Source of the DNA: Patescibacteria group bacterium
GTDB lineage: Bacteria > Patescibacteriota > Patescibacteriia > 2-02-FULL-49-11
DNA length: 64,000 nucleotides
Direction of reading: 5' to 3'
Assembly (NCBI GenBank): GCA_041645165.1
Contig: JBAZQN010000001.1
Coordinates: 53,971 to 117,970 of the forward strand
Shown: in pieces, positions 1 to 42,920 of the stretch
How the letters are laid out: the number at the start of each line of letters is the position of its first letter
Position numbering within the stretch: position 1 is the stretch's first letter
Program-made: the position numbers and the translations under genes
The notes under the pieces: model-generated
Told to the model about the DNA's origin: nothing
The model's database searches: none
The model's input: the letters and a program-made list of their open reading frames with translations, nothing else

Positions 1-672
1 CGGCCGCAATAAACTTCGTATAAAGCATGGTGGAGAGTGTGATGCGGCCGAACGCAGATATACGCAGATATTTTTCTACTGTCTCATATTTTATTGATTT
101 TTTTGTTTCTGGATCCCAGATCTCGGTCTGGGATGACAAGAAACGTGTAAGTCCTGACAGGTTAAGAATAGGAAACGTACCATTTGGCCCGAAATGGTAT
201 ATTGTCGAATGCGTACGCACTCACTGTGTGGGCATCGCCATCCTCGCGGTTTAAGCCCCCCTCTTGATCTCCCCCCTGATAGGGGGGAGACCACACGCCT
301 TGTCCTCCCCCTAAAAAGGGGGAGGTATGGCGGGGGTGTTTTAGGGGTGGGAGCATGTGAGTCCAGTGTAATTCCATTTGACCCGAAACCTCCCCTCGCG
401 TCCCTTCCTTCTCGAGGAGGGGATATTCAGATAGTGCGCTTGTTTCAAGTTCTCAATTCGAATATAATAGAAATGAGGCTATTGAGGGACTACATAAATC
501 GAAATGGTTACTAGAAGGGACAAATTTGGTGAAATATCGTACCCTGATTACATAAAATAGCACGTTAACAATGTTCGCAGCGCGGAAATGGCGATCAGTA
601 TCGTTGGTCACCACCACGGCGCTGCTGAACACTAAAAAAAGCTTTTTCAAAAAGATAGGGAGAAAGGAGGTG

Positions 673-2965: not shown

Positions 2966-3052
2966 AAAATTTTCAATTTTCAAGTCTCAATTATCAATTA
3001 ATTTTCAATTTATCAATGTTTGAAAATTGGAAATTGAGATTTGAAAATTATT
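2966..3052. repeat. AT-rich palindromic intergenic repeat, family C (tttcaattttcaa...ttgaaaattgaaa)
   Basis: Long imperfect palindrome: caattttcaagtctcaatt pairs with aattgagatttgaaaattg. Related copies lie at 6650-6755, 32897-33020, 34003-34125 and 63270-63400. Confidence 0.65.
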
Positions 3053-3062
3053 ATCATAATTT

Positions 3063-3992
3063 ATGTCTTGGTTTACCATCGCCATCATCGCTTATATACT
3101 TCTCGCGCTTGTCAACGTACTCGACAAGGTCATGATGGAGAATTTCGTGAAGGATGCGCGCGTGTATACGTTTTTGGTGGGAGTATTTGGGCTCCTCTCC
3201 ATCGTGCTCGCGCCCTTAGGATTGACCCTGCTCTCCGCGCCGTTGTTGGGGATCGCGCTTGTTTCCGGGATATGGATGTTTTTCGGGCTCCATTGGTTTT
3301 TCCGCGCGTTGAGTTTGGGAGAAGCTTCGCGGGTCATACCGCTCTCCGGCGCTTCCATCCCCACCCTTACCGTGCTGCTTGCCTTTATCGTGCTCGGTGA
3401 CACCTTTTCCCCGTGGCAGATGTCAGCGATCATCCTTCTCATCGCCGGAAGCGTGCTCCTCACCCATATACCGCAGGAGCACCACTGGTGGAATGCGGTG
3501 ATCAACCGTTTCCGCCATCCCCGCAAGTACCATGACGTGCTGCTTGCCGTGGGTTCGGGATTTGCGTTTGCGCTCTCCTATGTTCTTTCCAAGTACGTGT
3601 ATGACCAATCCTCATTTGTCACCGGTTTTATCTGGGGGCGCATTGGCACATTCCTCGCCGCCCTCTGTTTGCTCACCATCCCGAAGGTCCGCGCGCATCT
3701 TAAAGAAACATTCACCCATTTTATCTCTCCGAAAGGCGCCATGTTTTTCGGGAACCAAGGGTTAGGAGCGCTCGCAGTGGTGCTCCATAGCTATGCGGTG
3801 TCGCTGGGAAGCGTTGCATTGGTGCAAGCGCTGCAGGGCGTGCAATATGCCACGGTGTTTACGATTGCGATACTCGCCTCCATCTTCAGGCCGAAATTAT
3901 TGAAAGAATATCTCACCCCGCGGGTGCTCATGGAAAAATCATTTGCGATTCTTTTAGTCATCCTAGGGGTGGCGATGATAGCACTGCTGTGA
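3063..3992 (+). CDS. DMT/EamA-family membrane transporter
   Basis: About ten hydrophobic segments. The EamA-like signature ALSLGEASRVIPLSGASIPTLTVLLAFIVLGDTFSPWQMSAIILLIAGSVLL is present. Confidence 0.6.
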   Translation: MSWFTIAIIAYILLALVNVLDKVMMENFVKDARVYTFLVGVFGLLSIVLAPLGLTLLSAPLLGIALVSGIWMFFGLHWFFRALSLGEASRVIPLSGASIPTLTVLLAFIVLGDTFSPWQMSAIILLIAGSVLLTHIPQEHHWWNAVINRFRHPRKYHDVLLAVGSGFAFALSYVLSKYVYDQSSFVTGFIWGRIGTFLAALCLLTIPKVRAHLKETFTHFISPKGAMFFGNQGLGALAVVLHSYAVSLGSVALVQALQGVQYATVFTIAILASIFRPKLLKEYLTPRVLMEKSFAILLVILGVAMIALL

Positions 3993-4098: not shown

Positions 4099-5391
4099 AT
4101 GGATCAGATAAATGAAGAAATAATCAGTTTCCCTCATGGTTTCCTCTGGGGCACGGCGACTGCTGCCCATCAGGTGGAGGGGGATAACGTTCATAGCGAT
4201 TGGTGGAGTTGGGAAAGAAGCGCGCAAAAGCTGGAGGCATTAAGGCAAGAAGGTAAGAACGCGGATGATTATATTTCAGGGCATGCGTGCGATCATTATC
4301 ACAGGTTCGAGGAAGATATTAATTTAATAAAACTTGGAGGGCAAAACGCGCACCGGCTGTCGCTTGAGTGGTCACGCGTGGAGCCGGAGGAAGGAGTGTG
4401 GGATGAAAAAGAAATTGAACACTATCGGGAGGTTCTAGAAATGCTGAAGCAGAGGGGTATCAAAACATTTGTTACTTTGTGGCACTTTACGAACCCGCAG
4501 TGGTTTGCGGAAAAGGGAGGATGGCTGAAGAGGAGGAACGTGAAATATTTCGTGCGGTATTGCGAGAGGGTAGCGCGGATTTTAGGCGATTTGGTCGACG
4601 TATGGACGACCATCAATGAGCCGAATGTATATGCGCAGGTTGCGTATAATTGGGGCGTTTGGCCGCCGCAGCATCGCTCATATCTGGAGTCATTGAAGGT
4701 TTTTTGGCATTTGGCACGCGCGCACCGCCGTTCCTATGCGATATTGCATCGCCTCACGCCGCACGTGCCGGCGGGCGCCGCGATTAACGTGGTTTCGTAT
4801 GTCGCGCATACGCCGCACCGGTTCTCCTCCCACGTTTCGGTGTGGCTTATGCATATGGCGACAGGTCACCTGTTTTATACACTCACCGGCAGGAACACGC
4901 ACGATTATATTGGCATGAATTATTATTTTCGCACGCGCCTTAAAAATTTATCCTGGAGCCTGAACCCTTCTTTCGTGGATGTGCGCTCACATGGCAGAGA
5001 AACTTCGTCGTTGGGATGGGAAATTTATCCCCAAGGATTGTTTGAGTCGCTTGTTGATCTCTCACGCTACCACAAGCCAATTTATATCCTAGAGAACGGC
5101 ATTGCGACAGATGACGACGGCCAGCGTGCCCGCTTTATCCTTTCACACCTGCGCGAAGTGTATCACGCGATTCGGGAGGAAGTGGATGTGCGGGGCTATT
5201 TCCACTGGTCGCTTCTCGACAATTTCGAGTGGCATGAAGGCTGGAGGCCGAAATTCGGGCTGGTCGCGGTGGACCGGGAGACATTCAAGCGCACTCCCAA
5301 AGAATCGTTTTATCTGTATAAAAGAATTGCAGAAGACAATGCGATAAACCCTAAACTCTCTCGCTACGCGAGATCTGGCGTAGCCAGATAA
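4099..5391 (+). CDS. glycoside hydrolase family 1 beta-glucosidase
   Basis: N-terminal FPHGFLWGTATAAHQVEG. Acid/base TINEPNVYA and nucleophile YILENGIA. C-terminal HWSLLDNFEW. The 3' end, including the stop, lies inside repeat A1. Confidence 0.9.
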   Translation: MDQINEEIISFPHGFLWGTATAAHQVEGDNVHSDWWSWERSAQKLEALRQEGKNADDYISGHACDHYHRFEEDINLIKLGGQNAHRLSLEWSRVEPEEGVWDEKEIEHYREVLEMLKQRGIKTFVTLWHFTNPQWFAEKGGWLKRRNVKYFVRYCERVARILGDLVDVWTTINEPNVYAQVAYNWGVWPPQHRSYLESLKVFWHLARAHRRSYAILHRLTPHVPAGAAINVVSYVAHTPHRFSSHVSVWLMHMATGHLFYTLTGRNTHDYIGMNYYFRTRLKNLSWSLNPSFVDVRSHGRETSSLGWEIYPQGLFESLVDLSRYHKPIYILENGIATDDDGQRARFILSHLREVYHAIREEVDVRGYFHWSLLDNFEWHEGWRPKFGLVAVDRETFKRTPKESFYLYKRIAEDNAINPKLSRYARSGVAR

Positions 5392-5517
5392 ATCCTAAAT
5401 ACTAAACAAACTCAAAATTTCCCGCTTCAGCGGGATCCCGCTTACCTTAAAAAGAAAGAATTCAAGGTGCGGGACAAAATTCAAATATTTTAGTTTAGTA
5501 TTTCGTGCTTAGGATTT
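5350..5517. repeat. repeat family A copy 1 (TIR aatcctaaata.../...tatttcgtgcttaggatt; internal cccgcttcagcggga hairpins), preceded by partial IR-R-like segment
   Basis: Near-identical organisation to 18809-19046. The TIRs and the cccgc..gcggga hairpins are read directly. Confidence 0.7.
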
Positions 5518-8509: not shown

Positions 8510-8567
8510 GAGGGAATTGTTAAATTGTTAAATGGCTAATGGTCATATTACTATAGTGAGTTGCTCA

Positions 8568-8716
8568 CCTTATTCCGATTTGTCATTCCTGATTTATTCA
8601 GGAATCCAGTAACAAAAATATAAAATCGATCGTTATGGTAGTTCTGGTTTTCTGGATCCCGCATCTTGAGTGCGGGATGACGGTGAGGAATCGGAATTTG
8701 AATAGCAATTGAGTAT
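8568..8716 (+). repeat. structured repeat family B copy 1 (attccgatt-[gtcattcc..ggaatcc]-..atcgatcg..-[ggatcccgc..gcgggatgacg]-..aatcggaatttgaatagcaattgagtat)
   Basis: Two hairpins with stems conserved and loops variable relative to copies at 60069-60277 and 42921-43030 (reverse). Terminal inverted repeats attccgatt/aatcggaat. Confidence 0.7.
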
Positions 8717-8770
8717 GTCTGCATAAATCAGCGTGATAACCTTTTATCGAACTGTTCCTGTAATCTATTT

Positions 8771-12214: not shown

Positions 12215-12299
12215 ATGCGACTTGAGCTGCAGTGATTATATATTAATAATGCGATTATAGCTGAAAATGCGCCTTATTCAAAGCTTTTTATTATGCACT

Positions 12300-12328
12300 T
12301 TGACAAGGGGGGAAAGAACGTGTATAAA
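12300..12328 (+). promoter_or_regulatory. sigma70-type promoter (TTGACA-17 nt-TATAAA)
   Basis: TTGACA at 12300-12305, a 17-nt spacer, TATAAA at 12323-12328. Followed by a ~190-nt leader before the ORF at 12517/12526. Confidence 0.5.
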
Positions 12329-12516
12329 ATAGTAAACTGAATAAAGGAGCATATAGCAACGTATACATTATAAACGCGTAAAGTAACCTCATTTCACTCA
12401 TCAGTGCACGACATACGCTCAAAATGGAAAGCGGATGTGAAGCATCCCAAGCCCCGCCTTAAGCGGCGGGGTAACTGAAGGGGAAGAAGAGCGTAGCGCA
12501 TAGGTTCAAACGTTCG

Positions 12517-13356
12517 TTGGCAGGTATGCCTGCGGACGCTTGGATCGATTGCTTCTTCGGAGAAGAATGTCGTTCGCTAGGGTTTCACATGAAAAGGGGT
12601 CTTTGCGGATTCCTTTTTTATTGTACCTCAATATTTATTATGTCCGGAGAAAAAGATTCATTTGAAATTATTGAGGCGCTTAAACATGCGATTTGGACGC
12701 GCAGGCCGATGTTGGGGGAAATTATTCGCACGCATGGAGATAAGATTCTCTATGATTATACCGTAGATTTTCTTGATGTGAATAAAAGTAAATTGTTAGA
12801 CGATAGAAAGGGAGAGTTATTGGACGTGGTTAAGAAATTGTTGTCAGAAAGGTTAGGGGACAGAGTCGCTAGTGAGGTGGTAACGCAGATGGCGGCACTT
12901 CCGCTCGTTTCTACCGCGGATCACCATGGACCGATAGATCATCCATTTTGGGTCAATTCAAATATTATTAGCGGCATACCTCTATTTGAAAAAAAATTTA
13001 ATAGTGCCAAATATCTTGTGGTGTTTTCATTTGCCAGCGTGTCTGTGAACAATCTTTCCGCTTACCCGCGCGGCATCGAATTTCATGGAGGAGTAAACGG
13101 ATCCAGTAATATAATTAAATTACCTATTTTGCCAGATAAATTGAAAATGAGCGTGGTGTATGGCACTCGCGCATTTACAAGAGATGACTTAGAAAAGACG
13201 CACCATGAATTACTAATGAGAGAGCGTCATGGCGATATTATCTATGGACGCGCGGAAGAGGTGTGGAGGATAATTGAGAACAATTTTGGGAGTAGTGATG
13301 TCTTAAATGCTCTTGATTTTCCAAGCCAAGTCACAAAAATAAATTTTACCCTTTGA
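12517..13356 (+). CDS. hypothetical protein (no recognisable family)
   Basis: Intact 279-aa ORF. The annotated start is TTG; ATG candidates at 12526, 12589 and 12640. No family assignable. Confidence 0.5.
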   Translation: MAGMPADAWIDCFFGEECRSLGFHMKRGLCGFLFYCTSIFIMSGEKDSFEIIEALKHAIWTRRPMLGEIIRTHGDKILYDYTVDFLDVNKSKLLDDRKGELLDVVKKLLSERLGDRVASEVVTQMAALPLVSTADHHGPIDHPFWVNSNIISGIPLFEKKFNSAKYLVVFSFASVSVNNLSAYPRGIEFHGGVNGSSNIIKLPILPDKLKMSVVYGTRAFTRDDLEKTHHELLMRERHGDIIYGRAEEVWRIIENNFGSSDVLNALDFPSQVTKINFTL

Positions 13357-13398
13357 CAGATTTTTTTTCACCATACATTCTCCGATCATTCTCGTGAC

Positions 13399-14190
13399 GT
13401 GAGAGTGCCGGAACTCATTTATATTGAGATAGAAACAATTGTAAAAGAACTGCTTATTCATTATCATCTCTCTCGTCCAAAATCGTTATTGTATCGTATA
13501 TTATTCAATCAAAGGAAGCAACAATTAGTCCATTATTATTTTAATAATATCGCAGGCGCTTTTTCTAGCCAGCAAAAATGGGGCACTTACCTTTTTTGGG
13601 CGTTAGACAACAAGATGCATCGTGTTCGCCTCTCGTTAAAAGAGAATATTTTAATTTCAGAAGATAATAAAATTTCAATACCATTTACTCCCGAGGCAGT
13701 TGCACGTGCATTACAGGATAAAGCCATTTTTCCTAGTATGGCCATGTGTTATGTAACGGTAGCGCTCTATTATGGCATGAAATGCTTAGGTGGATTTTGC
13801 CAGGTACACGATCTGACTATGTTAAAAGAAGCCTGGATGAAAATCTTGTTTGAGGCGGATGAACGCGAGGAGGCGCTGGCTGTTGAACCGGTACAAACAA
13901 AAGAGTTGGGTGGGGATGGTATGGTGCTTGCTTATCTGAATACCCGGAAGGGTGAACTTGTACCCGCCACAGGCATTGATTTGGCGCTAAACAAGCAAGA
14001 TACCAGTTTTGAGAAATTCGTCGCGATTTCGCGGCGTGTGACACTTTCAGATATGATGAATTCTATGCTTCCTGAAATGTATACAGTCCTGTATCCTTCT
14101 TTTCAACGAGATGGAAGATTAGCCTCGCTTACCCCAGAACAAATTTCAAAAGTTATTGGTTTGCATGGAAAAATTGATATTGAAGAGTAA
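13399..14190 (+). CDS. hypothetical protein (no recognisable family)
   Basis: Intact 263-aa ORF lying 42 nt downstream of the previous one on the same strand. Confidence 0.5.
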   Translation: MRVPELIYIEIETIVKELLIHYHLSRPKSLLYRILFNQRKQQLVHYYFNNIAGAFSSQQKWGTYLFWALDNKMHRVRLSLKENILISEDNKISIPFTPEAVARALQDKAIFPSMAMCYVTVALYYGMKCLGGFCQVHDLTMLKEAWMKILFEADEREEALAVEPVQTKELGGDGMVLAYLNTRKGELVPATGIDLALNKQDTSFEKFVAISRRVTLSDMMNSMLPEMYTVLYPSFQRDGRLASLTPEQISKVIGLHGKIDIEE

Positions 14191-14300
14191 TCATTTTTCG
14201 CTTGTTTGAAAAGCTACAGCATATAAAGCCGCATTGATTCTTGGATATAAATAGAGTATGTTTAAAACGCTTATTTGCGTTTTGTTATTTTTATAGAGAT

Positions 14301-15491
14301 ATGAATACTAGTCCATTAGCCGACCGGATGCGGCCGGAGCGGCTGGAAGATTTTGTCGGACAGGAAGAGCTCCTAGGGAAGGGGACTTTTTTGCGCCGCG
14401 CCATTGAGGAAGACCGCGTGCCTTCCATGATTCTCTGGGGCCCGCCGGGGTGCGGAAAAACCACGCTTGCGCATGTGATTGCGCGGATCACGAAGGCGGA
14501 ATTTGTCTCATTGCCCGCGACATCGAGCGGTGTTGAGGAATTGCGCAAGATGATCGAGCGCGCGGAAAGCGGTGTGCGGCTTGGGGTAAAAACAGTCCTG
14601 TTTATTGACGAGATCCACCGCTGGAACAAAGCGCAGCAGGACCGGCTGCTGCCTTATGTAGAGAAGGGCGTGATAACGCTCATCGGCGCGACAACCGAGA
14701 ATCCCTCGTTTGAGGTGAATTCGGCGCTGCTTTCCCGCGCGCGCGTGTTTGTATTGAAACTGCTTGATGAAGCAGCGTTAAAGAAAATTTTGTTGCGGGC
14801 GGCTAAAGAAGCGGGAAGAACGTTTCCCGGCGAACTATTGGACTTCATCGCCGCGCAGGCGCACGGCGATGCCCGTTTTGCGTTAAATACGCTTGAGGCG
14901 TGTTTTGATGAAGGGGAAGTTATTACCATAGAAAGGATTAAGCAGATTTTGCAGAAATCCCACCTGTTGTATGACAAGAAAGGAGAAGAACACTATAATA
15001 TCGTTTCCGCTCTGCATAAATCCATGCGCGGGGGAGACGCAGATGCCGCCGTGTATTGGCTCGCGCGGATGCTCGAAGGCGGCGAAGATCCGCTCTATGT
15101 GGCGCGCAGAATTGTAAGGTTTGCTTCGGAAGACATCGGACTTGCGAATAACACGGCACTCCTTGTCGCAAATGCTGCGTTTGACGCATGCCACAAATTA
15201 GGCATGCCTGAGTGCGCGGTGCACCTTGCCCAGGCGGTAATGTACATGGCGCTGTCGAAAAAAAGCATTGTCGCGTATGAAGCGTATGGAAAGGCGAAAC
15301 AGGACGTGGAGAAGTACGGCGCCCTGCCCGTACCGCTCCATATCCGCAATGCGCCCACGCAGCTGATGAAAGATTTGAATTACGGGAAGGGATATAAATA
15401 CACGCCGCATTTCGAAGGCGACGCGGGTAAACAGGATTATCTGCCGGAGGAGTTGAAGGGAAGATATTATATTGAAAATCCAAAATTTTGA
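14301..15491 (+). CDS. rarA: replication-associated recombination protein A (AAA+ ATPase RarA/MgsA)
   Basis: PLADRMRPERLEDFVGQEELLG, Walker A GPPGCGKTTLA, Walker B LFIDEIHRWNK, and a MgsA C-terminal domain. ORF-track start at 14241; the internal ATG at 14301 fits the family N-terminus. Confidence 0.9.
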   Translation: MNTSPLADRMRPERLEDFVGQEELLGKGTFLRRAIEEDRVPSMILWGPPGCGKTTLAHVIARITKAEFVSLPATSSGVEELRKMIERAESGVRLGVKTVLFIDEIHRWNKAQQDRLLPYVEKGVITLIGATTENPSFEVNSALLSRARVFVLKLLDEAALKKILLRAAKEAGRTFPGELLDFIAAQAHGDARFALNTLEACFDEGEVITIERIKQILQKSHLLYDKKGEEHYNIVSALHKSMRGGDADAAVYWLARMLEGGEDPLYVARRIVRFASEDIGLANNTALLVANAAFDACHKLGMPECAVHLAQAVMYMALSKKSIVAYEAYGKAKQDVEKYGALPVPLHIRNAPTQLMKDLNYGKGYKYTPHFEGDAGKQDYLPEELKGRYYIENPKF

Positions 15492-17409: not shown

Positions 17410-17639
17410 AAATGTAAAGATTTCCTACTGATGATAACTTATGCGTTTATCCTTATTAAGCACCTTCAGTATAACCTTATAAAGATAGGAAGCAAAGGCG
17501 AATATCTCCTCATTTGGTTATACATCAGAAATTTGGTATAGTATATCTTAGGATTTATCTGGTTACGCCGGATAAGAGCTCGTCGTAGCTACGCTAGATC
17601 CCGCGTAGCGGGACGTAGCGAGAGAATTTAGAGTTTTAT

Positions 17640-17972
17640 ATGAATGATGAACAATGGGAAGTGACCCTAGACCGGATTGAGCAGAAGTTCCGTATTGAGG
17701 AACGGAAGCGGGAGGAGCGCGGGGAAGGGGAGGGGGTGGTGGAATGGGTGGTCTTTATGACACCCCAAGGAAAGGTGAGGCTTGAGCGCACGACGAAGCC
17801 GCGCGTGGTGGGAGAGCATTCGGAGCGTTCGAAGCGCATCGGGAGCACGGCCGTGATCAAAAAAATTTACGATCCTGACGACCTTGTCAGTTACATGCGC
17901 GCGTACCTTTGGGATGAGGGCACTTCAAGCTGGGGGGAAATAAAAGGCGAGGGCTTTTCTGCAAATTTTTAA
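17640..17972 (+). CDS. hypothetical protein (110 aa, charged)
   Basis: Starts immediately after the left inverted repeat. No family recognised. Confidence 0.4.
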   Translation: MNDEQWEVTLDRIEQKFRIEERKREERGEGEGVVEWVVFMTPQGKVRLERTTKPRVVGEHSERSKRIGSTAVIKKIYDPDDLVSYMRAYLWDEGTSSWGEIKGEGFSANF

Positions 17973-18009: not shown

Positions 18010-18086
18010 TAGCGTGGCAGCTCTTGTCCCGTCGAATGACTGGGATGTCTGCCACCCACGTGGTCGGAGACGAGCTCCGACGCTAC
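18010..18086. repeat. REP-like family R copy
   Basis: gtagcgtggcag...ctgccacccacgtggtcggagacgagctccgacgctac. Confidence 0.7.
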
Positions 18087-18120
18087 AGAGAGAAATACTA
18101 TTTTATTCTAAGCTCACCGT

Positions 18121-18735
18121 ATGAAAAAACAAACGCAACCGTCAACCAAATCACCTTCCTTTCCCTATCGCTCCTTCCATCTTTCGCGGCAAGTGAAGAT
18201 TGCTTTTCCCCCCATGCGCGAGCTTGTGGAATTGCTGCATAAACCGTGGGGAATTTTTTTCCTCACATTCGTGCTTATCATTAATTATGCCTACGTCTCG
18301 ATGCTTGCGACCATTCCGGTGCTCGCCAATATGCCTACAGATAATATGATCTTGATACGAAGCGATGCCGGCCAGTCATTAAGTGTGAAATATAAAGATG
18401 AAGTGCCGATGATTTTATCGAACTATTTGGCAAATCGGGGGCAATTTGCGGCAAAACTTTCTAATGAATCGTATATAAAAGCAGATGTGGATGCGTGGCT
18501 TGCAGAGATTAAGAATGAAAAAGGTTTATTGCTTAGCTTTAGCGTCCCTCAAAACCTTAAGGAAGTGCATTTGGGGCTCGTAATCGCAATGGGGACTGAC
18601 GAGCAGGCGGCAGCACGGTATCTCACCGCATTGGAAGGCGACACCACGGCCGGGAAGGAAGCCGAAAGCGAATTTAGAAATGCAGAGGAGCGCCTTACGA
18701 TGGTTTTCCAGCTCGCGCCTTGGTTGAGTAAGTAA
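18121..18735 (+). CDS. hypothetical membrane-anchored protein
   Basis: One TM helix (IFFLTFVLIINYAYVSMLATIPVLA). Start may be at 18214 (MRELVELL). Confidence 0.4.
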   Translation: MKKQTQPSTKSPSFPYRSFHLSRQVKIAFPPMRELVELLHKPWGIFFLTFVLIINYAYVSMLATIPVLANMPTDNMILIRSDAGQSLSVKYKDEVPMILSNYLANRGQFAAKLSNESYIKADVDAWLAEIKNEKGLLLSFSVPQNLKEVHLGLVIAMGTDEQAAARYLTALEGDTTAGKEAESEFRNAEERLTMVFQLAPWLSK

Positions 18736-18808: not shown

Positions 18809-19046
18809 AAAATTCTAAACTCTCGCTACGTCCCGCTACGCGGGATCTAGCGTAGCTACGACGAGCTCTTATCTGGCGTAGCCAGATAAATTCGAAACCC
18901 TAAACAAGCACCAAATCTCCCGCCTCATCGGGATCCCGCCTACCTTAGTAATTCTCATTCAAGGAGCGGGACAAAATTCAAAACGTGTTTCGGTGATTTT
19001 GTCATTTGGATTTGTTTAGGATTTAGAGTTTCGGATTTAGGATTTT
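18809..19046. repeat. right inverted repeat (18809-18890) contiguous with repeat family A copy 2 (18890-19046)
   Basis: Same composite architecture as 5350-5517. TIR ccctaaac.../...tttaggatt and tcccgcctcatcggga hairpins. Confidence 0.7.
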
Positions 19047-19942: not shown

Positions 19943-21232
19943 ATGACCGCCAAACCTAAACCACCGACTGCGACCCAAGAGGTATCGAATGATCCGCGCG
20001 TCAATGTGCGCGATGATGCGCTTGCGGCGGTGTACGCGAAACCACATCATTTTGAACTTCCTCACGAGCATCACGGTTTGAGACTCATCGCCAATGCGAT
20101 AGTCGCTGTAGTGTTCGGCATGATTGCGGGGGTCGTGGGCCTCCTGTTGTTTATCTCGGGAGCGTTTTCCCGTGTGCCGTATTTGGGGTCGATTGATGTG
20201 GCGGCGTTAGTGCCGAGCGCGCCGGTGACCATTGAACGCACGGAGAAGGTGTCGGTTACTGCAGATGAGCGCGCAAGCGCGGTTTTGAAACGGATCCAGC
20301 CGAGCGTCGTAGGTCTCTATGCGACAAAAAATTTAAGCAAGGACCTCGCAGGTCTTATCAATTCAGCGGGTGCGCCTCTTGCGACTGGTATCGCGCTCAC
20401 GAGCGACGGATGGGTGCTCGCTGCGGGAGATTTGAGCGATGAATCAGCAGGGCCTTTAACTATTATTACCATCGACGGAAAAATTTATGAGGTAGAGCGC
20501 CGCATGCAGGATAAGGCGACCGGATTGTGGTTTGTGAAGGTAAGCACCTCGCTGTTTGTGGCTGTACCGTTTACGCGCAGCGAGTCGTCGCTCGAGGCAG
20601 GATCATCTGTGCTTCTCCCTTCATTTCAAATCGGGACGCAGGGGGCAGCCTTTGCGGGTACGGTCGCGGGATTGAGCGTGCTCACGGTGCGTGACAGCGA
20701 TCGGTTGGAATCCCGCCTCACGCTTGCGGTATCACTAAAAGGAAACGCGCTTGGTGTGCCGTTGGTTTCTTTAGCCGGAGAAGTCGGAGGACTTGTGAGT
20801 GCGCAAGAGGAGGGTATTGTACACGCAGTGCCCGTCGCATCCCTTCAGCCGATTATTGACCGGATATTGAAGGAAGGCGATGCGCGTCGTCCGCAGGTTG
20901 GCATGCATTATATAGAGCTTTCAAGCGTTGCGGATGTGGCATTTCCACTTACCCACGGGAGGAGATTCGGCGCGCTTTTAGTGAAGAATGGCGATGTGCC
21001 GGCAATAACACTGAAATCAAATGCAGAAACCGCGGGGTTGAAAGAAGGCGATATCGTGATAAAAGTTGACGGGGACGAGGTGACTGATGAGACGGATCTT
21101 GCCACCCTTATCCAAGCCTATCCCAACGATAAAGCCCTTAAGCTCTCCATCCTGCGGGCGGGAGAAGAGAAATTGGTTGACCTTTCCCTTGCGCCACCTC
21201 CTACACCAACACAAGCGGAAAAGAAACGTTAA
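19943..21232 (+). CDS. membrane-anchored HtrA/DegP-like protein with C-terminal PDZ domain, catalytic triad apparently substituted (pseudo-protease)
   Basis: Trypsin-like fold: DGWVLAAGD aligns to DGYVVTNNHVV (His to Asp), LKGNALGVPL aligns to GNSGGAL (Ser to Ala), and the Asp position reads GLWFVKV. PDZ domain: GALLVKNG...GLKEGDIVIKVDGDEV. N-terminal TM anchor. Confidence 0.55.
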   Translation: MTAKPKPPTATQEVSNDPRVNVRDDALAAVYAKPHHFELPHEHHGLRLIANAIVAVVFGMIAGVVGLLLFISGAFSRVPYLGSIDVAALVPSAPVTIERTEKVSVTADERASAVLKRIQPSVVGLYATKNLSKDLAGLINSAGAPLATGIALTSDGWVLAAGDLSDESAGPLTIITIDGKIYEVERRMQDKATGLWFVKVSTSLFVAVPFTRSESSLEAGSSVLLPSFQIGTQGAAFAGTVAGLSVLTVRDSDRLESRLTLAVSLKGNALGVPLVSLAGEVGGLVSAQEEGIVHAVPVASLQPIIDRILKEGDARRPQVGMHYIELSSVADVAFPLTHGRRFGALLVKNGDVPAITLKSNAETAGLKEGDIVIKVDGDEVTDETDLATLIQAYPNDKALKLSILRAGEEKLVDLSLAPPPTPTQAEKKR

Positions 21233-21256
21233 GAGAAGCCGAGAACGCCTTTTTGT

Positions 21257-22126
21257 ATGTCGTGGAAAGGGATCGTTATAATATTAATGATCGTGCAGGT
21301 GTTGGTGGAGGTGCTTTTTAAACGCGCTACGGACCGCCTGCCGCAACAGAAATCGCTGGGAGTTGCCTACCAGTTCTTTTTTTGTTCTCTGTGGGCTCTC
21401 GCTTTGAGCGCCATCATAGGAGAGGGTATCGGCAATGCGCGCAATATTTCGGCGGCGGCGGGAGTCGGGGTCTTGAATGCGTACGGCAATTACAGCAATT
21501 GGCGCGCGTATGCGTATAGCCTCAGCAAGACTGCGCTATTTTTCCCTTTGAGCAGTCTCATTGCGATTGTCCTTGCCGTGGTGATTTTGGGAGAACGCGT
21601 GCTCGTGGAGCCGACGGTGTTTTTCGGCGTTCTTTTGAGCTTTTTTGCCATGTGGTTGTTCCAGGTACCGCAGAAGGAAGGACAGTTTCCCCATCGGCGC
21701 GCGTGGCTTTTTGCCACTGTTGCGACGGTGGTTATTTTCGGCGTAACCAATTATCTCCTGAAGCCCCTTGCGCTGGGGGGCGTTTCCCTCCATGAATTTG
21801 TGGTGGGATGGTATGGGGGTTCGTTCATAGGATCCCTGACCATTTTGCCTTTTGAGCGCGTGCGAACCTTGCGGCTGTCGCGTCGGTCGCTCGTCGCGAT
21901 TATCATCCTTTCTTTGGGATTCGTGGCCGCCCTCAGTCTCCTCTATGTCACCTATCAATACGGCGGCACGTTAACGCAAATTATACCTCTCAAAGGGATT
22001 GCGCTCACGATTTTGCCCGCGATAATCGGCTGGTTGTATTTCGGGGAGAAACAGGGGATGGGGAAAAGAGAGTGGTGGGCATTTAGCCTGGGCATTGCCG
22101 GCGCGGCGCTCATTCTTTTAAGATAA
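21257..22126 (+). CDS. DMT/EamA-family membrane transporter
   Basis: Ten hydrophobic segments. EamA-like block SSLIAIVLAVVILGERVLVEPTVFFGVLLSFFAMWLF. Confidence 0.5.
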   Translation: MSWKGIVIILMIVQVLVEVLFKRATDRLPQQKSLGVAYQFFFCSLWALALSAIIGEGIGNARNISAAAGVGVLNAYGNYSNWRAYAYSLSKTALFFPLSSLIAIVLAVVILGERVLVEPTVFFGVLLSFFAMWLFQVPQKEGQFPHRRAWLFATVATVVIFGVTNYLLKPLALGGVSLHEFVVGWYGGSFIGSLTILPFERVRTLRLSRRSLVAIIILSLGFVAALSLLYVTYQYGGTLTQIIPLKGIALTILPAIIGWLYFGEKQGMGKREWWAFSLGIAGAALILLR

Positions 22127-22203
22127 AAAGTCTATTTGTCACACTGGAATTTGTAGAAATAAAAAACTAGAAGGTAATATAGCTCTGAATTATGGTAAGA
22201 TTT

Positions 22204-22240
22204 CACCCCATTATTTTACGATCGTATAATAGTGGGGTAT
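22204..22240. promoter_or_regulatory. 32-bp near-perfect palindrome ccccattattttacgatcgtataatagtgggg (copy P1), candidate operator
   Basis: Dyad symmetry centred on acgatcgt. Further copies at 22897-22932 and 43971-44004. P1 and P2 bracket the PaaX-like regulator gene. Confidence 0.45.
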
Positions 22241-22301
22241 AATATTCATACATAGTGAAGGGGCGGCAGAAGGGTTAATAGAGAATTTAAAATTAACATT
22301 C

Positions 22302-22847
22302 ATGTTTTTGCACACAAAAACGCCATTCACTGAGAAATTATTAACAAAATTAGTTGATTTAGAGCCAATGTTTACCATGAGTCCCTCGGCTGCCGCAGAA
22401 CTCTTTGGCTTTAATCCACAGCGGGCGGCATGGCGAGCGGCACGTTTTCGACGCGAGAGTGAGCAGCGTGAGCGTAAACGCATAGCGAAAGCGTTTGAAA
22501 ATTTATGTCAGGCAGATTACCTCACAGCGGTTAAGGGGAAGAAAGGTACGTACCGGATTACTCCCAAAGGATGGTTGAAATTTGCCATATCATATGCGCG
22601 GCACTTTAAGGCGTCTGCCACATCGGGGAAACAGGGAGGATTTCTCATTGTATTCGATATTCCCGAACGGCATCGTCAATTTCGCGATGTCTTTAGACGT
22701 GTGCTCTATTCGCTTGGTTTTTCTCAATTTCAACGAAGTGTTTTTTACACATCTGATCGAAAGGTATTCGAGTTTGCCGCGCGCATCATTGTGAATTGTG
22801 AATTGGAAGATTGTGCGAAATTGGTGTTTGCGGATAAAATCGTGTAA
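22302..22847 (+). CDS. PaaX-like small transcriptional regulator (winged-helix N-terminus plus Cas2-like-fold C-terminal domain)
   Basis: N-terminal HTH AFENLCQADYLTAVKGKKGTYRITPKGW. C-terminal GFLIVFDIPERHRQFRDVFRRVLYSLGFSQFQRSVFYTS resembles the PaaX C-terminal domain. No cas genes nearby. Confidence 0.5.
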   Translation: MFLHTKTPFTEKLLTKLVDLEPMFTMSPSAAAELFGFNPQRAAWRAARFRRESEQRERKRIAKAFENLCQADYLTAVKGKKGTYRITPKGWLKFAISYARHFKASATSGKQGGFLIVFDIPERHRQFRDVFRRVLYSLGFSQFQRSVFYTSDRKVFEFAARIIVNCELEDCAKLVFADKIV

Positions 22848-22896
22848 TATAGAAAGAGCACAGAGCGAATTGGTTGTTAAAGTTTCATTAGGTTGT

Positions 22897-22932
22897 TACC
22901 CCATTATTTCACGATCGTGCAATACTGGGGTG
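22897..22932. promoter_or_regulatory. palindrome copy P2 (ccccattatttcacgatcgtgcaatactgggg)
   Basis: Same dyad as P1, with substitutions that mostly keep the symmetry. Confidence 0.45.
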
Positions 22933-23050
22933 AAGAGTTGAGGGGAAGGGGGAGGAAAGGAAGGGAAAGGAGAAAAGAAGTGCAAAGGGTTGAGGTGGAG
23001 TGAAATTGGGAATTTGGGAGAAGAGAGCAAATTAGGAGTTTTCTCGTTGG
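22925..23050 (+). repeat. ~125-bp polypurine (GA-rich) tract
   Basis: The plus strand is almost only G and A (ggggtgaagagttgaggggaagggggaggaaaggaagggaaaggagaaaagaag...). Confidence 0.8.
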
Positions 23051-23158
23051 TTTGATGGGAGAACTTTTTGTTTTTAAAAGCGAAACATATTGAGAGTGCA
23101 GCACAATGATATAAAAAAATTTGCGCGCAGATCATCAGCCACAATCAGAACCTCAATC

Positions 23159-23228
23159 TGTAGCGTCGGAGCTTGTCTCCGACCAATCAGCTGCGATCCG
23201 TTGGTGGCAGACAGGCTGCCACGCTACA
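23159..23228 (-). repeat. REP-like family R copy (reverse orientation)
   Basis: gtagcgtcggagcttgtctccgacc...ggtggcagacaggctgccacgctac is the reverse complement of the R consensus. Confidence 0.7.
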
Positions 23229-23539
23229 GTGTATCACTATGTGGACGAACGCGGATTAACGCGGATATTATCATAGGGTCCACTGTCATTCCTAAGCGTT
23301 TGTTTAGGAATCAGGTGAAGCGCGCAACCGATAACGTGCGGCCTTCGGCCCAGTCCTTCAGGATTAAGTCTTCAGGATGACCCCGAGTGGGCAGTTACAC
23401 CCCGCGTCTATTGACAGAGAGAGAGAGTTCGTGGTAAGAAAGTGGTGACAAAAACTTTTTTTCTTTGTCAAAATTAAATAAGTCCCACGTATTTTTTATC
23501 GTGGGGATTTTTGGTTCATTTAAAATTTGGAGATAAATT

Positions 23540-23743
23540 ATGAATTCCCCAGACACCGGAACCAACGTGGAAATCACCTATCTACTCAAGTGCCCTAAGG
23601 GGCATGAAGGGAAGAAGGTGATCTATCCCCGCAACATCCTGAGCGACACGATCGCCCTGATCGCTGCTAGCCAGGTTCATTTGGCTCAGGGGCAGGTATG
23701 CAGCGTATGCGGGAAAATAATGTTGGTGACGGGGTGGAAGTAG
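23540..23743 (+). CDS. small zinc-ribbon-like protein (CxxxH...CxxC), hypothetical
   Basis: Good RBS (ggagataaattATG). A CPKGH...CSVCGK pattern in 67 aa. Confidence 0.45.
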   Translation: MNSPDTGTNVEITYLLKCPKGHEGKKVIYPRNILSDTIALIAASQVHLAQGQVCSVCGKIMLVTGWK

Positions 23744-23870
23744 CTCTCACCCGAAAGACTGAAAGGCGAGATTTATCTATTCGCCGAGTAAGTCTTTTTT
23801 TGTTTGTTTTGCGTTCTTTCAGCCTTTTGTGATATTATGTAAATGAGAATTATATTTTTACTTTTATTTT

Positions 23871-24788
23871 ATGAGTGAACTAAAATCTGAAATTACACCA
23901 GTTGACTCAAGATCTGCTACACCTGATTACGAAGGAGATTATCAGAAGATAAATAACGGTGAGGCGTCAGTGGAGAATTTTGATATTAGCCATCTATTTG
24001 AAATGGCCAATCAGCCATTTGCCACCAAAGATGGCTATGCGATAAAAAATAGGATTTTTTTTGAACTTATCCGTAATCACCCGCAGGTCTCCCCCGAAGA
24101 TCTTCTTATTGTTGATTGCCGCGATGGGGATTTACAAAGGCGAAACGCAAAAGATAAGACAGATATTGGAAAGGCCATTAATTTTTTGAAAGGAGTGAAT
24201 GGCAGAATCTCGAAAGATACACCGATTGATACCGTTGCGGCTATAAAACAAGCATTTACTCAAGCATATTACCACAATAAACAAATAAAAGAAGCGGCGG
24301 ATCTGCAGCAGGAATTTTGCAATGACCCGCGGTTTAAGGAGCTGCCCCCTTTCAGGCGGGCGATGATGCTGGAATCCCTCGCATCGTTTTATTTGGATTT
24401 AGATGACACGGATGGGGCGGCTTTAACAGTTCATGATATGCATGGCTGTTTAGTGGATAAAAATTTAAAGGAGAGCGAAGTGCCGCGGGTTGTAGGGGGA
24501 TTTAATCATATTTCTGGTGATCTTGAATATAAACGCGGGCGATATAGTTTAGCAGCAGAGTCGTATTATGCGGTGCACGCTACTTTTAGTCCAGATTCAC
24601 GGAACCAAATCGTCGGCGCGATGAAATTCATGCACTGTAAATGGCTGGAGAACAGAATCGATGATCCAAGGTTTGAGTCCGTGAGAAAGTTTTTCTTGGA
24701 TAATTATTCCAAGCTTGAGGAAACAGATAAGATAGGGCACGCGGCATCGTGGGAATTTGTTTCGCAAAAGTTTGACATCAAAGGCTGA
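23871..24788 (+). CDS. hypothetical protein (305 aa)
   Basis: Intact ORF followed by an intrinsic terminator. No motif recognised. Confidence 0.45.
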   Translation: MSELKSEITPVDSRSATPDYEGDYQKINNGEASVENFDISHLFEMANQPFATKDGYAIKNRIFFELIRNHPQVSPEDLLIVDCRDGDLQRRNAKDKTDIGKAINFLKGVNGRISKDTPIDTVAAIKQAFTQAYYHNKQIKEAADLQQEFCNDPRFKELPPFRRAMMLESLASFYLDLDDTDGAALTVHDMHGCLVDKNLKESEVPRVVGGFNHISGDLEYKRGRYSLAAESYYAVHATFSPDSRNQIVGAMKFMHCKWLENRIDDPRFESVRKFFLDNYSKLEETDKIGHAASWEFVSQKFDIKG

Positions 24789-24807
24789 CCAAGCGGGTGG
24801 CGCGGTG

Positions 24808-24853
24808 CAACAAGGGTGAAAATGTTGTGTTGCGTCACCCTTGTTGTTTTTTT
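24808..24853 (+). terminator. Rho-independent terminator
   Basis: A 12-bp stem (caacaagggtga/tcacccttgttg) followed by a T7 run. Confidence 0.7.
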
Positions 24854-24885
24854 GTGAGTGAAGGAACACACCCCTGAAACCCCTC

Positions 24886-25734
24886 TCAAGAGGGGATTTT
24901 TTGAGCGATGAGGACAAGGTGGGGAGAGAAGAGGGGATTGGGATGGTTGGGGCCGATGAGTTTGTTAATGATGCGGCCAAAGGTTTGAATTTTCCAGTTA
25001 ATCGCGCGTTCCCACCAATTGAGAGGCAGTGGTTGGTTGTCATAACTCCCCCCACCCCTCTTATCATAAGAGGGGGGTCTTGGTGGGCGTTCGGTCCAGA
25101 AACCGAAGGTGCGGTAGTAGTTGAGATATTGGATATCCAATTTTGATCGTGTGCCTGCATTCGCAGGAGATGCTTCGTTAAGCTCAGCATGACGAATCGC
25201 ATTTTTGATTCTTTTAAGATTCATAATTTTCGTATTGTGTTTTTTTAAATTTTCTTTGTCGATGAGCCAGTGGAAGAGGTATTGCAGGTGCGCGAAGTGC
25301 GGCATGCTCATTATCAATGTGCCGCCTGGCGCGACAAGGTCGGCGTGTTTTTGAATAACTTCGTTAAGATTTAAAAAATGTTCGACAAACCCAAAAGAGC
25401 AGACGATATCAAACTGTCTTTTGGGATTCCACGAAAACAAGTCTTCTTTATAGAGAGCAGGCTCGGGAAGATTATTAAACGCGAATAGCGCGCGGGTGGT
25501 TTCAATTTCATCGGAATAATCAATACCGTAAGCTTGGTAGTGGTATTTTTTTGCCAGGAAACACAAAAAGTCGCCGCCGGCACATCCTATTTCAAGGACT
25601 GATTTTTGGGGATCAGGGGCAAGATATTTTTCAAAAAGATCGGCAAAATAGACCTTCTCTACGGTGTGTGGTTTGAATTTGCCGTAATAAGAATCCCAGA
25701 ATTGCTTTGTCGTATATTCTTGCATATTTATCAT
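24886..25734 (-). CDS. class I SAM-dependent methyltransferase
   Basis: Motif I VLEIGCAGGDFLCFL, plus post-I and motif II blocks. The C-terminal ~60 aa are encoded by a CCCCTC..GAGGGG hairpin repeat region, so the true stop may be earlier. Confidence 0.75.
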   Translation of the reverse strand: MINMQEYTTKQFWDSYYGKFKPHTVEKVYFADLFEKYLAPDPQKSVLEIGCAGGDFLCFLAKKYHYQAYGIDYSDEIETTRALFAFNNLPEPALYKEDLFSWNPKRQFDIVCSFGFVEHFLNLNEVIQKHADLVAPGGTLIMSMPHFAHLQYLFHWLIDKENLKKHNTKIMNLKRIKNAIRHAELNEASPANAGTRSKLDIQYLNYYRTFGFWTERPPRPPSYDKRGGGSYDNQPLPLNWWERAINWKIQTFGRIINKLIGPNHPNPLFSPHLVLIAQKIPS

Positions 25735-32896: not shown

Positions 32897-33020
32897 TAAT
32901 TTTCAATTTTCAAGCATCAATGTTCAAATAATTTTTAATGACCCAATGTTCAATGTTTGAAAATTGTTTCATTGGAGCATTAAATGAAAATTGGAAATTG
33001 ATTATTGAAAATTAACCAAT
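32897..33020. repeat. family C AT-rich palindromic repeat (copy 3)
   Basis: taattttcaattttcaagcatcaatg...tttgaaaattg. It is the inverted counterpart of copy 4 at 34003-34125. Confidence 0.65.
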
Positions 33021-34001
33021 CTTTTTAAACATTACTCTCATATGATTGCTCAATCCTTGTTTATCGATAATCGCCTGCATGACCGGGATGAAGTCCCGTA
33101 ATCGTTCATGGTAGTCAAATCCATCCTCGTATTGTTTCTTGTACAGGTAGTCCATCACATCGAGGCCATAATAGTCAAGGGAATGAATTATAAAGCCGGT
33201 CTTGTGTGCGAGAAACTCAAGCGACATGCGGTCAAAAAAACACAAATGTTGGAAAGGAAGAAGAGTATTTTGTTCGCCCTGCATAAGATAGTAAGCGAGG
33301 GAATGCACATGGGGAGTGTAGGCGAGCACGTAGCCTCCGGGCATAAGCTTTTCATTGAGCGCAGTAAACGTGGCGGCGGGATCAGTCAAATGCTCTAGCA
33401 CATCGAACATGGTGATGATATTGTAGCCCTTGATAGGCTCATTTTCCAGCTGGACCTCTTCCACATGAAGCCCGCGTTTCTTGCAGATTTCAACGAGAAA
33501 ACGAGCGAGTTCTATTCCCTTATAGGCGATGCCTTGATCCTTGAGGTAATCGATAAAATAACCAGGGCCGCAGCCAAGGTCGAGTATTTTCATCGCTCTG
33601 CGGGGAATATCGGAAATTTTTTCTTCAATATATTTCATGCGTTCCGGCGCATAGGTTTGTTTCCGGTACTCGTAGGTATCAATAATTTCTCTCGTGGTAT
33701 CTTTTACATAGGCGTCATCATCATAGATTTCAATTTTTTTCAGCGCTTCCCATTTTATAAGAGGAGATACCAAGTGGCATTGGGCGCACTCAAACAGTTG
33801 GTATTCTCGATAGGACAGGTACGCAAACCCTTCCTTGCCCGCGCAGAGCGGGCAGGAAAACTGGTCAGGAGACAGGCAGGCATCTTTGCATTGATCCATT
33901 ATTTTATGCCTATATTCGAGCATGTTCTTGAAGAAGTCCTTGCTCCTTAATTTTTTTGGATCGATGTCGAAGATTTTATAGTCTTTCAGGATATCGCGCA
34001 T
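33012..34001 (-). CDS. SAM-dependent methyltransferase with N-terminal Cys4 zinc-ribbon (sugar C/O-methyltransferase-like)
   Basis: CPLC...CAQC then ILDLGCGPGYF. Architecture as in TylC3/TcaB9-type sugar methyltransferases. Flanked by inverted family C repeats. Confidence 0.65.
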   Translation of the reverse strand: MRDILKDYKIFDIDPKKLRSKDFFKNMLEYRHKIMDQCKDACLSPDQFSCPLCAGKEGFAYLSYREYQLFECAQCHLVSPLIKWEALKKIEIYDDDAYVKDTTREIIDTYEYRKQTYAPERMKYIEEKISDIPRRAMKILDLGCGPGYFIDYLKDQGIAYKGIELARFLVEICKKRGLHVEEVQLENEPIKGYNIITMFDVLEHLTDPAATFTALNEKLMPGGYVLAYTPHVHSLAYYLMQGEQNTLLPFQHLCFFDRMSLEFLAHKTGFIIHSLDYYGLDVMDYLYKKQYEDGFDYHERLRDFIPVMQAIIDKQGLSNHMRVMFKKIG

Positions 34002-34002
34002 A

Positions 34003-34125
34003 CCAATTGATAATTTTCAATTTTCAAATACCAATTTTCAAATAATTTCCAATGACCTAATTTCCAAACGTTTGAAAATTGAGAATTGATGCATTGATTG
34101 AAAATTGAGCATTGAAAATTACTGA
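34003..34125. repeat. family C AT-rich palindromic repeat (copy 4, inverted relative to copy 3)
   Basis: Reverse complement begins cagtaattttcaatgctcaattttcaatcaatgcatcaat, matching copy 3. Confidence 0.65.
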
Positions 34126-42814: not shown

Positions 42815-42920
42815 GCGTTTTCTCGTTCAAACGGTAAAAGGTCAATGTATCCATATATTTTGGTGCGTTGGCCTTTTCAATTTTGGCGAGTGTGAGATAA
42901 TAAGCAAAGCGTGCACGTCT

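Follow-up and report, generated by a model that had tools for sequence, protein, structure and literature searches.

Repetitive extragenic palindromes (REPs) of the CGTC-tagged class were surveyed by Di Nocera, De Gregorio and Rocco (2013, BMC Genomics 14:522; PMC3733652), and what is said of them here draws on sections of that paper. According to these sections, a unit has a CGTC tag (often TGTC), an 8-9-bp stem that starts with AT, a loop of 4 nt (family 1) or 5 nt, families with other loop lengths being noted, and a CCA tail. The units occur mostly as "HH" dimers with the tags outside and 20-100 bp apart, often as heterodimers, and the spacers are conserved within a species. Family CGTC-1 is dRS3 in Neisseria, and in Rickettsia conorii the family is RPE-6 and RPE-4; the same sections describe the class as one that 'lacks a dedicated transposase', and no transposase was found for it in the 2013 survey. 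Here we describe a repeated element built from paired hairpins of this kind in a 64,000-nt stretch of DNA, called the window throughout, from a Patescibacteria group bacterium (assembly GCA_041645165.1, contig JBAZQN010000001.1, positions 53,971 to 117,970).

The neisserial repeat was later redefined by Chenal et al. (2025, Nat Commun 16:2388; PMC11893778) as a 28-nt sequence, NTS, with the consensus CGTCATTCCCGCGMAVGCGGGAATCYRG. SsnA, a 94-aa GIY-YIG protein, binds NTS only as single-stranded DNA (ssDNA) and cleaves slightly upstream of it, by a few nucleotides. Binding depends critically on the C that follows the palindrome, and cleavage on the three bases that precede it; the N. meningitidis enzyme is inactive once the stem sequence is altered. 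The ssn genes are typically flanked by the motif. A nuclease that cuts the hairpin was found in that work, while mobility was not demonstrated (PMC11893778).

In the window, the element forms discrete non-coding insertions, present in several copies, whose ends are inverted and whose duplication contains TA. Judged from its sequence, the hairpin unit is of the CGTC-tagged REP type, the same as in neisserial dRS3/NTS, the Ssn-related motif (SRM) and Rickettsia RPE-4/-6. We consider it likely that the whole is a non-autonomous mobile DNA element, a miniature inverted-repeat transposable element (MITE), with a head-to-head pair of CGTC/TGTC-tagged REPs as its core, residing in the chromosome of an Uhrbacteria-like member of the Patescibacteria. 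Indeed, homologues of RarA, of a glycosyltransferase and of an inositol monophosphatase (IMPase) are found in Patescibacteria, the closest in Candidatus Uhrbacteria, and the genes around the copies are ordinary chromosomal ones. The hairpin unit is already known and widespread; what is new is its host lineage in the Candidate Phyla Radiation (CPR) and its packaging in TA-duplicating terminal repeats, as shown by empty sites. In the papers searched, nothing turned up on repeats of this kind in CPR/Patescibacteria, on MITEs in that group, or on whether NTS/Ssn hairpins move in any later study.

Composite copies, empty sites and spread

The initial annotation had placed a two-hairpin structured element at three sites in the window and had suggested either a small non-coding RNA family or a MITE with functional hairpins. 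All three copies exist at those places, together with a half copy and a variant solo hairpin (Table 1). The sites were right, but copies 1 and 3 reach further than had been drawn, to terminal inverted repeats.

For copy 3, an empty site is found in locus L138, where the genes for a tetratricopeptide-repeat (TPR) protein and a glycosyltransferase converge with a 0-nt gap, reading ...GATAGATAAATTAACATCCACAAAACC.... The window reads ...GATAGATAAAT-TA-[226 nt]-TA-ACATCCACAAAACC... at this point, and removal of 60051-60278 gives a gap-free alignment to L138. Compared with L138, copy 3 is a 226-nt insertion with TA duplication, and it changes the C-terminus of the TPR protein from ...EIDKLTSTKP* to ...EIDKLY*, with the stop codon supplied by the element.

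For copy 2, the empty site is L139, in which the IMPase ATG lies 9 bases after a promoter-like GATAAT. The window carries an additional 143 bases compared with L139; ATAA is duplicated on either side of them, and they sit between the promoter-like -10 GATAAT (42896-42901) and the IMPase ATG at 43067, a start backed by an identical 262-aa NCBI protein. Copy 2 had been said to abut the start of the IMPase gene, which does not hold, since the hairpin pair ends at 43028 and the insertion at 43046. In the relative without the insertion, an extended -10-like TGAGATAAT lies 9 nt before the IMPase ATG (L139 340-372; window 42874-42903), and a near-leaderless IMPase mRNA is therefore implied. By implication, the insertion would add 147 nt (element plus duplicated ATAA) to this mRNA, giving it a structured leader of about 160 nt.

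For copy 1, the gap between the cupin and ABC genes measures 261 nt in the window and 68 nt in a syntenic relative (L123) whose genes are 76-92% identical. The gap in L123 holds a different, solo decayed unit and is too diverged to give exact boundaries for copy 1. Elsewhere in the same comparison, window 21201-24898 (about 3.7 kb, with several repeat clusters and three open reading frames (ORFs)) corresponds to about 100 nt in L123 (16388-16495), and a second indel lies at window 12215-14319.

The right arm of 28-29 nt, GAATCGGAATTTGAATAGCAATTGAGTA(T), is common to copies 1 and 3, whose left arms are also related and whose terminal inverted repeats measure 27-30 nt; the outer arms of copy 3 are 30-nt terminal inverted repeats that are 80% complementary. 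A TTGAAT...TATAAT in the right terminal repeat was considered as a promoter and ruled out by its 10-nt spacing, as read from the sequence. Copy 2 is without long arms and has its own 10-nt outer inverted repeat, read as AGCGTKCACG; a second copy of its outer flanks was not found among the loci compared. When nine composite copies were folded together with RNAalifold, as the initial annotation had proposed, the consensus was a four-way junction made up of an outer arm stem, hairpin A, a CCAG/CTGG stem and hairpin B, in which 9 of 34 pairs are kept through double changes. The spacer centre ATCGAT/CGATCG is lineage-specific, ATCGAT being present in the spacers of none of 97 hairpin pairs from other phyla. 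A third palindromic repeat family in the window, CCCCATTATTTTACGATCGTATAATAGTGGGG, has the centre CGATCG like the element spacer and occurs at 21782-21820, 22200-22238, 22893-22931 and 43966-44004.

The composite has also spread. A scan of metagenomes with 22 nt of the right arm gave ten loci in which BLAST similarity to the window is limited to the element, at 72-93% identity, with unrelated flanking genes. These copies form two subtypes, matching copies 1 and 3, and the copy in L129, which lies in an unrelated context, has 93% identity to copy 1. The flanks of these other copies are mostly TA/TA, with TA/TG, TA/TT, CA/TA and TC/TC as exceptions. A short motif, GTTAAATTGTTA(A/C)AT, adjoins the element in two unrelated contexts (window 8525-8540 and L129). 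In L128, the same terminal repeats and TA flank a 125-nt core without REP hairpin twice (1601-1730 and 1862-1990), and a canonical NTS-like pair lies naked between nusA and yidC (4973-5067); arms and hairpin pair are therefore separable modules. Assemblies of the same strain from short reads have contigs that break off at the element, as a repeat would lead one to expect. Taken together, the empty sites for copies 2 and 3, the TA-containing duplication, the 27-30-nt terminal repeats and the ten unrelated metagenome contexts speak for the MITE half of the earlier suggestion.

Copies lie after the 3' ends of genes, copy 3 between convergent genes, and the hairpins are stable, all of which would also suit transcription terminators or stabilisers of mRNA 3' ends that are selected site by site and do not move. 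This is highly improbable, as no T/U tract follows any unit and a terminator scan found none at the units. Moreover, the orthologous sites of relatives do without the element (the convergent genes of L138 have their 0-nt gap), copy 2 stands upstream of a start codon, inside the leader, and 72-93% identity in unrelated contexts argues for common descent.

The hairpin unit in the window and across bacteria

A scan for GTCAT...ATCCAG with an internal palindrome defined the repeat unit as a single hairpin, consisting of (C/T)GTC, AT, 6 variable bp, loop, the complementary 6, AT and CCAG. Each listed copy is a head-to-head pair of such units, inverted and with the tagged heads outward. In all, there are eight intact units in the window rather than six, the additional two being the half copy and the solo variant. 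The pattern GTCATYCC-N(4-30)-GGRATCCAG was found 5 times in the window, with 0.01 expected from dinucleotide-preserving shuffles.

All eight units carry the unpaired terminal tag (3 CGTC, 5 TGTC) and have GTC directly 5' and C directly 3' of the palindrome. A perfect stem of at least 8 bp starting with AT is present in seven, and hairpin B of copy 2 has one A.A mismatch. The loops are 4, 5, 6, 6, 7, 7, 8 and 48 nt long, the tail is CCAG in seven units and CAGG in one, and the three dimers, tags outward, have spacers of 42, 47 and 65 nt. The decayed unit in the spacer of copy 3 recurs in a metagenome copy (L129 6852-7055) and has an intact-stem version in L130 (5515-5677), and hairpin B of copy 3 has shorter-loop versions in L130 and L125. 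A distant Uhrbacteria relative carries a large-loop variant of the unit (L125 4936-4985) with the stem ATTCCCGCC and a nested CCGKTATC...CGGGGTAAAC loop hairpin, to be compared with window 60172-60245; with respect to head and tail its loop runs the opposite way, pointing to an inversion across the stem.

Table 1. Positions of the composite copies, their parts and the hairpin units in the window (CM, covariance model)
Feature	Position	Strand	Structure and remarks
Copy 1 composite, 162 nt	8554-8715	+	left terminal inverted repeat, hairpin A, spacer, hairpin B, GGTGAG linker, right terminal inverted repeat; flanks TA 8552-8553 and TG 8716-8717
Copy 1 hairpin A	8581-8609	+	TGTC-AT-TCCTGA-tttat-TCAGGA-AT-CCAG; CM 28.8 bits, E 6e-6
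Copy 1 spacer	8610-8651	.	AT-rich imperfect palindrome, centre ATCGATCG; from alignment
Copy 1 hairpin B	8652-8682	-	CGTC-AT-CCCGCA-ctcaaga-TGCGGG-AT-CCAG; CM 26.2 bits; sole window fit to SRM pattern
Copy 1 right terminal inverted repeat	8688-8715	+	GAATCGGAATTTGAATAGCAATTGAGTA; identical in copy 3; found in 10 metagenome loci
Copy 2 inserted segment, 143 nt	42904-43046	-	hairpin pair; ATAA duplicated at 42900-42903 and 43047-43050
Copy 2 hairpin B	42923-42953	+	CGTC-AT-CCCGCA-ggcaaga-TGCGGG-AA-CCAG; A.A mismatch at stem base; weak CM match, 10.2 bits
Copy 2 hairpin A	43001-43028	-	TGTC-AT-TCCTGC-gcag-GCAGGA-AT-CCAG; 3 mismatches from neisserial NTS consensus
Copy 3 composite, 226 nt	60051-60276	+	TA duplicated at 60049-60050 and 60277-60278
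Copy 3 hairpin A	60077-60106	+	TGTC-AT-TCCAGA-ccgaga-TCTGGA-AT-CCAG; CM 26.0 bits
Decayed ninth unit, in copy 3 spacer	~60145-60170	-	CGTC-CTCGA-ccgaga-TCGGGG-AAC; read from sequence
Copy 3 hairpin B	60172-60245	-	CGTC-AT-TCCCGCC-[48-nt loop, nested hairpin]-GGCGGGA-AT-CCAG; from unit scan
Half copy, one unit	109-138	-	TGTC-AT-CCCAGA-ccgaga-TCTGGG-AT-CCAG; preceded by T-rich half spacer; CM 25.6 bits
Solo variant unit	23284-23315	+	TGTC-AT-TCCTAA-gcgtttgt-TTAGGA-AT-CAGG; inside a cluster of other hairpin repeats; weak CM match, 11.1 bits

The invariant stems, the central core and the differing loops that had been noticed from the letters alone are all borne out by the three-way alignment of the copies, in which GTCATTCC...GGAATCCAG (hairpin A), TCCCGC...GCGGGA(A/T)GACG (hairpin B) and a central AATCGAT are invariant; further invariant blocks are TTGTCATTCC, GGAATCCAG and a closing ATGACG. 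The two stems are indeed mutually complementary (gtcattcc with ggaatgac), because a copy consists of two units in inverted orientation. Compensatory change is likewise real but lies elsewhere than had been thought: it is absent from the constant outer bases that had been quoted, and the double changes sit in the inner stem (TCCTGA/TCAGGA, TCCTGC/GCAGGA, TCCAGA/TCTGGA, CCCAGA/TCTGGG).

For the analysis of covariation, units were chosen by head and tail alone (GTCAT-N16-ATCCAG), which avoids circularity. The three innermost pairs are Watson-Crick in 174 of the 184 sites so chosen, and position 6 pairs as C-G in 136, G-C in 37, T-A in 7 and A-T in 1. Among the 101 distinct sequences, 98.4% of cells are paired and six of the eight pairs change on both sides, a result reached by 0 of 500 shuffles. 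The core hairpins are under pairing constraint across phyla, and the stems covary within the family as well, so the suspicion of a selected structure was well founded. On the head strand there are 13 G.T mismatches against 4 A.C mismatches, a weak indication that this strand is the relevant one, in agreement with the strand specificity of SsnA. A CM built from the 101 rows (one window unit, 43001-43028, and 100 from other phyla) and run with filters off recovers four further window units, with E values of 6e-6 to 5e-5, and no other convincing match. A swarm of decayed copies, which the initial annotation had regarded as the mark of a transposon relic, is therefore absent from the 64 kb.

Since the stems covary, the alternative of a small structured RNA family, either a small RNA gene or a cis-acting element of untranslated regions under selection at the RNA level, had to be considered. 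The 13 to 4 ratio on the head strand could be taken as a weak sign of constraint on one strand, copy 2 is probably transcribed as a leader, given its place between a promoter-like site and the IMPase ATG, and copies downstream of gene ends are what is reported for REPs. On balance, however, such a family is quite improbable. With Rfam 15 at the gathering score only a tRNA-Pro was found, and nothing appeared at the elements even at E<=1. Folded as single strands, the two strands of each copy are equally good at forming a four-way structure (z-scores -3.6 to -5.2), which is a consequence of palindromic DNA and therefore uninformative about RNA, and the pair, with one unit per orientation, favours no strand. 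Copies 1 and 2 are oriented differently with respect to the gene downstream, the element is missing from the orthologous sites of relatives that have the same genes, and a scan of the three sites showed no promoter or terminator signature belonging to the element. Lastly, the homologous unit has been shown experimentally to act as ssDNA, being bound and cut only in this form in vitro (PMC11893778).

Outside the window, the two-unit pattern was run against one genome of each species and gave at least 120 loci in many phyla. The matches listed include Alpha-, Beta-, Gamma- and Deltaproteobacteria, Nitrospirales, Dehalococcoidia, Binatia and Gemmatimonadota, as well as Balneolaceae, Kiritimatiellia, Cloacimonadota, SAR324 and several CPR lineages, with Rickettsia, Wolbachia, Neisseria dentiae, Dyella and Methylobacterium among the named hosts. 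In a separate single-unit scan of viral contigs, the unit was common in viral or prophage contigs among the IMG/VR matches listed (L140-L259), and some of these loci, for example L171 and L166, carry 6-12 units within a few kb.

Several further repeats were noted in the window. A second hairpin family, GTAGCGT-[5-bp variable stem, loop, stem]-ACCAC, occurs at 1029-1171, 18056-18096 and 23153-23237; its stems are compensatory (CGGAG/CTCCG, GGCAG/CTGCC, CATAG/CTATG) and it resembles the GTAG-tagged REP class. AT-rich 110-nt repeats, TAATTTTCAATTTTCAA..., in direct and inverted orientation (2967-3076, 32897-33006, 34011-34120), flank ORF 33012-34001 in a polysaccharide gene cluster. Region 1-1300 seems to be mostly non-coding and repeat-rich, and includes a perfect 27-nt tandem repeat, GACTCCTCGGAAGACTTCGATCCAGAA, in three copies (717-808). 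Inverted repeats of 77 nt that are 95% complementary (17548-17624 and 18820-18896, with a related copy at 5373-5449) bracket 1.2 kb with two small ORFs (17640-17972 and 18121-18735), possibly a small mobile or invertible cassette.

Candidate enzymes and a proposed route of movement

IS630/Tc1-mariner-type DDE transposition and Correia-like MITEs are recognised by a 2-bp TA duplication together with inverted ends of 26-30 bp. Given such ends, the composite is probably moved in trans by an IS630/Tc1-mariner-type DDE transposase, which would act on the outer repeats. In the mechanism that we propose, the hairpin pair and its AT-rich palindromic spacer would travel enclosed by the terminal inverted repeats and insert at TA with target duplication. 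The element would act as DNA, its hairpins being read as ssDNA by an Ssn-type GIY-YIG protein of the host, as the neisserial work suggests (PMC11893778). The constant GTC head, the C tail and the covarying stems would fit recognition of an ssDNA hairpin by a protein.

A competitor for this role of the DDE enzyme is the single-strand route, in which a pure REP/REPIN-type element is moved by 'peel-and-paste' through an Ssn-type nuclease or a RAYT-type Y1 transposase, and the outer repeats and TA are incidental. The units are indeed of the CGTC-REP/NTS type and stand head-to-head like the ends of an ssn gene with the gene deleted; copy 2 lacks long terminal repeats; naked canonical dimers exist in a CPR contig (L128 4973-5067), and for these the single-strand route could apply; and a Y1 transposase (Y1_Tnp) gene is present in Uhrbacteria relatives. 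Yet single-strand transposition of the HUH type leaves no target duplication, whereas here TA (or ATAA) is duplicated and the inserted piece is the whole 226 nt including the outer repeats. In addition, a core that has no hairpins is moved by these outer repeats too, the hairpin on either side of the L125 Y1 gene is another one, CCGCAGCAGAGCTGCGG, the tag in the window is CGTC/TGTC and not GTAG, and CGTC REPs have never been found flanking RAYTs. We therefore regard the single-strand route as unlikely for the composite and return to the MITE that a DDE enzyme probably moves.

Genes for either partner of the MITE were sought. A phmmer search with GIY-YIG probe sequences gave one match in the genome loci (L118) and two in the viral ones, all confirmed by Pfam (PF01541); all three of these ORFs found in about 1.9 Mb of unit-bearing DNA (L118, L141, L233) are directly flanked by units, and the tags face outward at both loci that were read in sequence (L118, L233). 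The same probes gave no match in about 240 kb of related CPR DNA, and a crude GIY-YIG motif scan in six frames of the window gave nothing. Among the 64 small window ORFs outside large genes there was no Pfam match to GIY-YIG, Y1_Tnp or DDE; one small window ORF matches HTH_17 (excisionase-like). No transposase lies between the element's own ends (TACTCAATTGCTATTCAAATTCCGATT-like) in any of the loci compared. An all-against-all BLAST of 7,211 ORFs from the 120 loci listed, aimed at a protein family linked to the unit, returned only translated repeats and housekeeping families, and under strict criteria no small ORF in these loci is bracketed by units. ORF 194-514, beside the half copy, was considered as a partner gene; it belongs to no family and looks spurious.

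Several observations weigh against a MITE whose core is an Ssn-read hairpin pair. Neither the window nor about 240 kb of related CPR DNA yielded an ssn, RAYT or matching transposase gene, and both enzymatic partners are therefore hypothetical for this host; the IS630-like element of L125, the only one seen in the relatives, was rejected as the cognate transposase, as its ends are unrelated. The flanks of copy 1 are TA and TG, and the outer repeats of copy 2 are not those of the other copies. None of the eight units matches the NTS consensus with at most one mismatch, the nearest (43001-43028) having three, two of which form a compensatory C-G to T-A change. Only one (8652-8682) matches the SRM pattern HGTCWYN(0-2)YYVSBRHN(0-5)WNVSBRGN(0-2)RNCYNB, with 0.08 expected in shuffles, the other seven falling outside by stem composition or loop length. 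Because SsnA is inactive on a changed stem, the diverse stems of the window would need a tolerant or a different reader. Finally, template-switch repair could also keep palindromes perfect without selection.

The IS630-like element just mentioned (L125 2904-4617, also in L127) has HTH_23 and DDE_3 domains and the ends ATAGATACCCGAATCTAAAACTA. It seems to enclose an IS200-like Y1_Tnp gene that is flanked by direct copies of the hairpin CCGCAGCAGAGCTGCGGGGTAT.

As a tentative extension, doubtful at present, we propose that in CPR a pan-bacterial CGTC/NTS hairpin pair was captured as the core of a TA-targeting MITE and spreads by hitch-hiking on the substrate of a DDE transposase, the pair being kept for a benefit to the element or the host. 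If so, the hairpins might serve, for example, as an Ssn-controlled single-strand cleavage site that affects DNA uptake or replication, and this would be a modular two-enzyme mobile element of a kind not described before.

The packaging bears on how CGTC REPs and NTS disperse and offers a concrete, testable route, with insertions of the hairpin pair caught against empty sites in a lineage with tiny genomes. The insertions remodel host genes, namely the C-terminus and stop codon of the TPR gene and the leader of the IMPase gene. For annotation, they are a warning, as such elements break short-read assemblies and create spurious ORFs.

Comparison with described systems

The closest likeness is to family CGTC-1 as set out in the sections of PMC3733652 cited above (Di Nocera, De Gregorio and Rocco, 2013): the tag, the 8-9-bp stem starting with AT, the CCA(G) tail, the mainly head-to-head dimers, often heterodimers, with a spacer conserved within the species, and the intergenic location after gene ends are common to both. 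In contrast to CGTC-1, the window loops are mostly 5-8 nt (one 48) rather than 4-5, and the stems are richer in AT (TCCTGA, TCCAGA). The host belongs to CPR, which is absent among the taxa named in those sections, and the dimers lie inside terminal inverted repeats with target duplication, an arrangement that those sections do not describe (PMC3733652).

With NTS and SRM, the window units share the grammar of head, stem and tail and keep the C needed for SsnA binding and the GTC residues needed for cleavage, and the ssn-flanking architecture is reproduced in loci L118, L141 and L233 (PMC11893778). They differ in that a search of the window and of related CPR DNA turned up no ssn gene.

REPINs and their RAYTs offer a parallel in that two inverted REP units and a spacer replicate as one unit, and this unit can be viewed as a non-autonomous form derived from a gene with these hairpins on both sides. 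REPINs, however, have a GTAG tag, a Y1 (HUH) enzyme and no target duplication, whereas the window element has a CGTC tag, a TA duplication and additional terminal repeats.

In its outer form the element resembles the Correia elements of Neisseria and IS630/Tc1-mariner MITEs, which are likewise non-coding, 100-230 nt long and bounded by 26-30-bp terminal inverted repeats with a TA duplication, and which insert beside or into the ends of genes and alter leaders and 3' ends. Its ends nevertheless have no sequence similarity to theirs, and the core of Correia elements is without dRS3/NTS hairpins.

Rickettsia RPE-4/RPE-6, the neisserial NIMEs and the enterobacterial BIMEs are also larger palindromic or mosaic elements made from CGTC-type or REP units, and RPE-4/RPE-6 can enter coding sequence, as copy 3 does at the 3' end of the TPR gene. 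RPEs, however, insert in frame inside genes, with no TA duplication reported, and NIMEs and BIMEs are arrays, whereas the element described here is a discrete, transposon-like unit bounded by terminal repeats.

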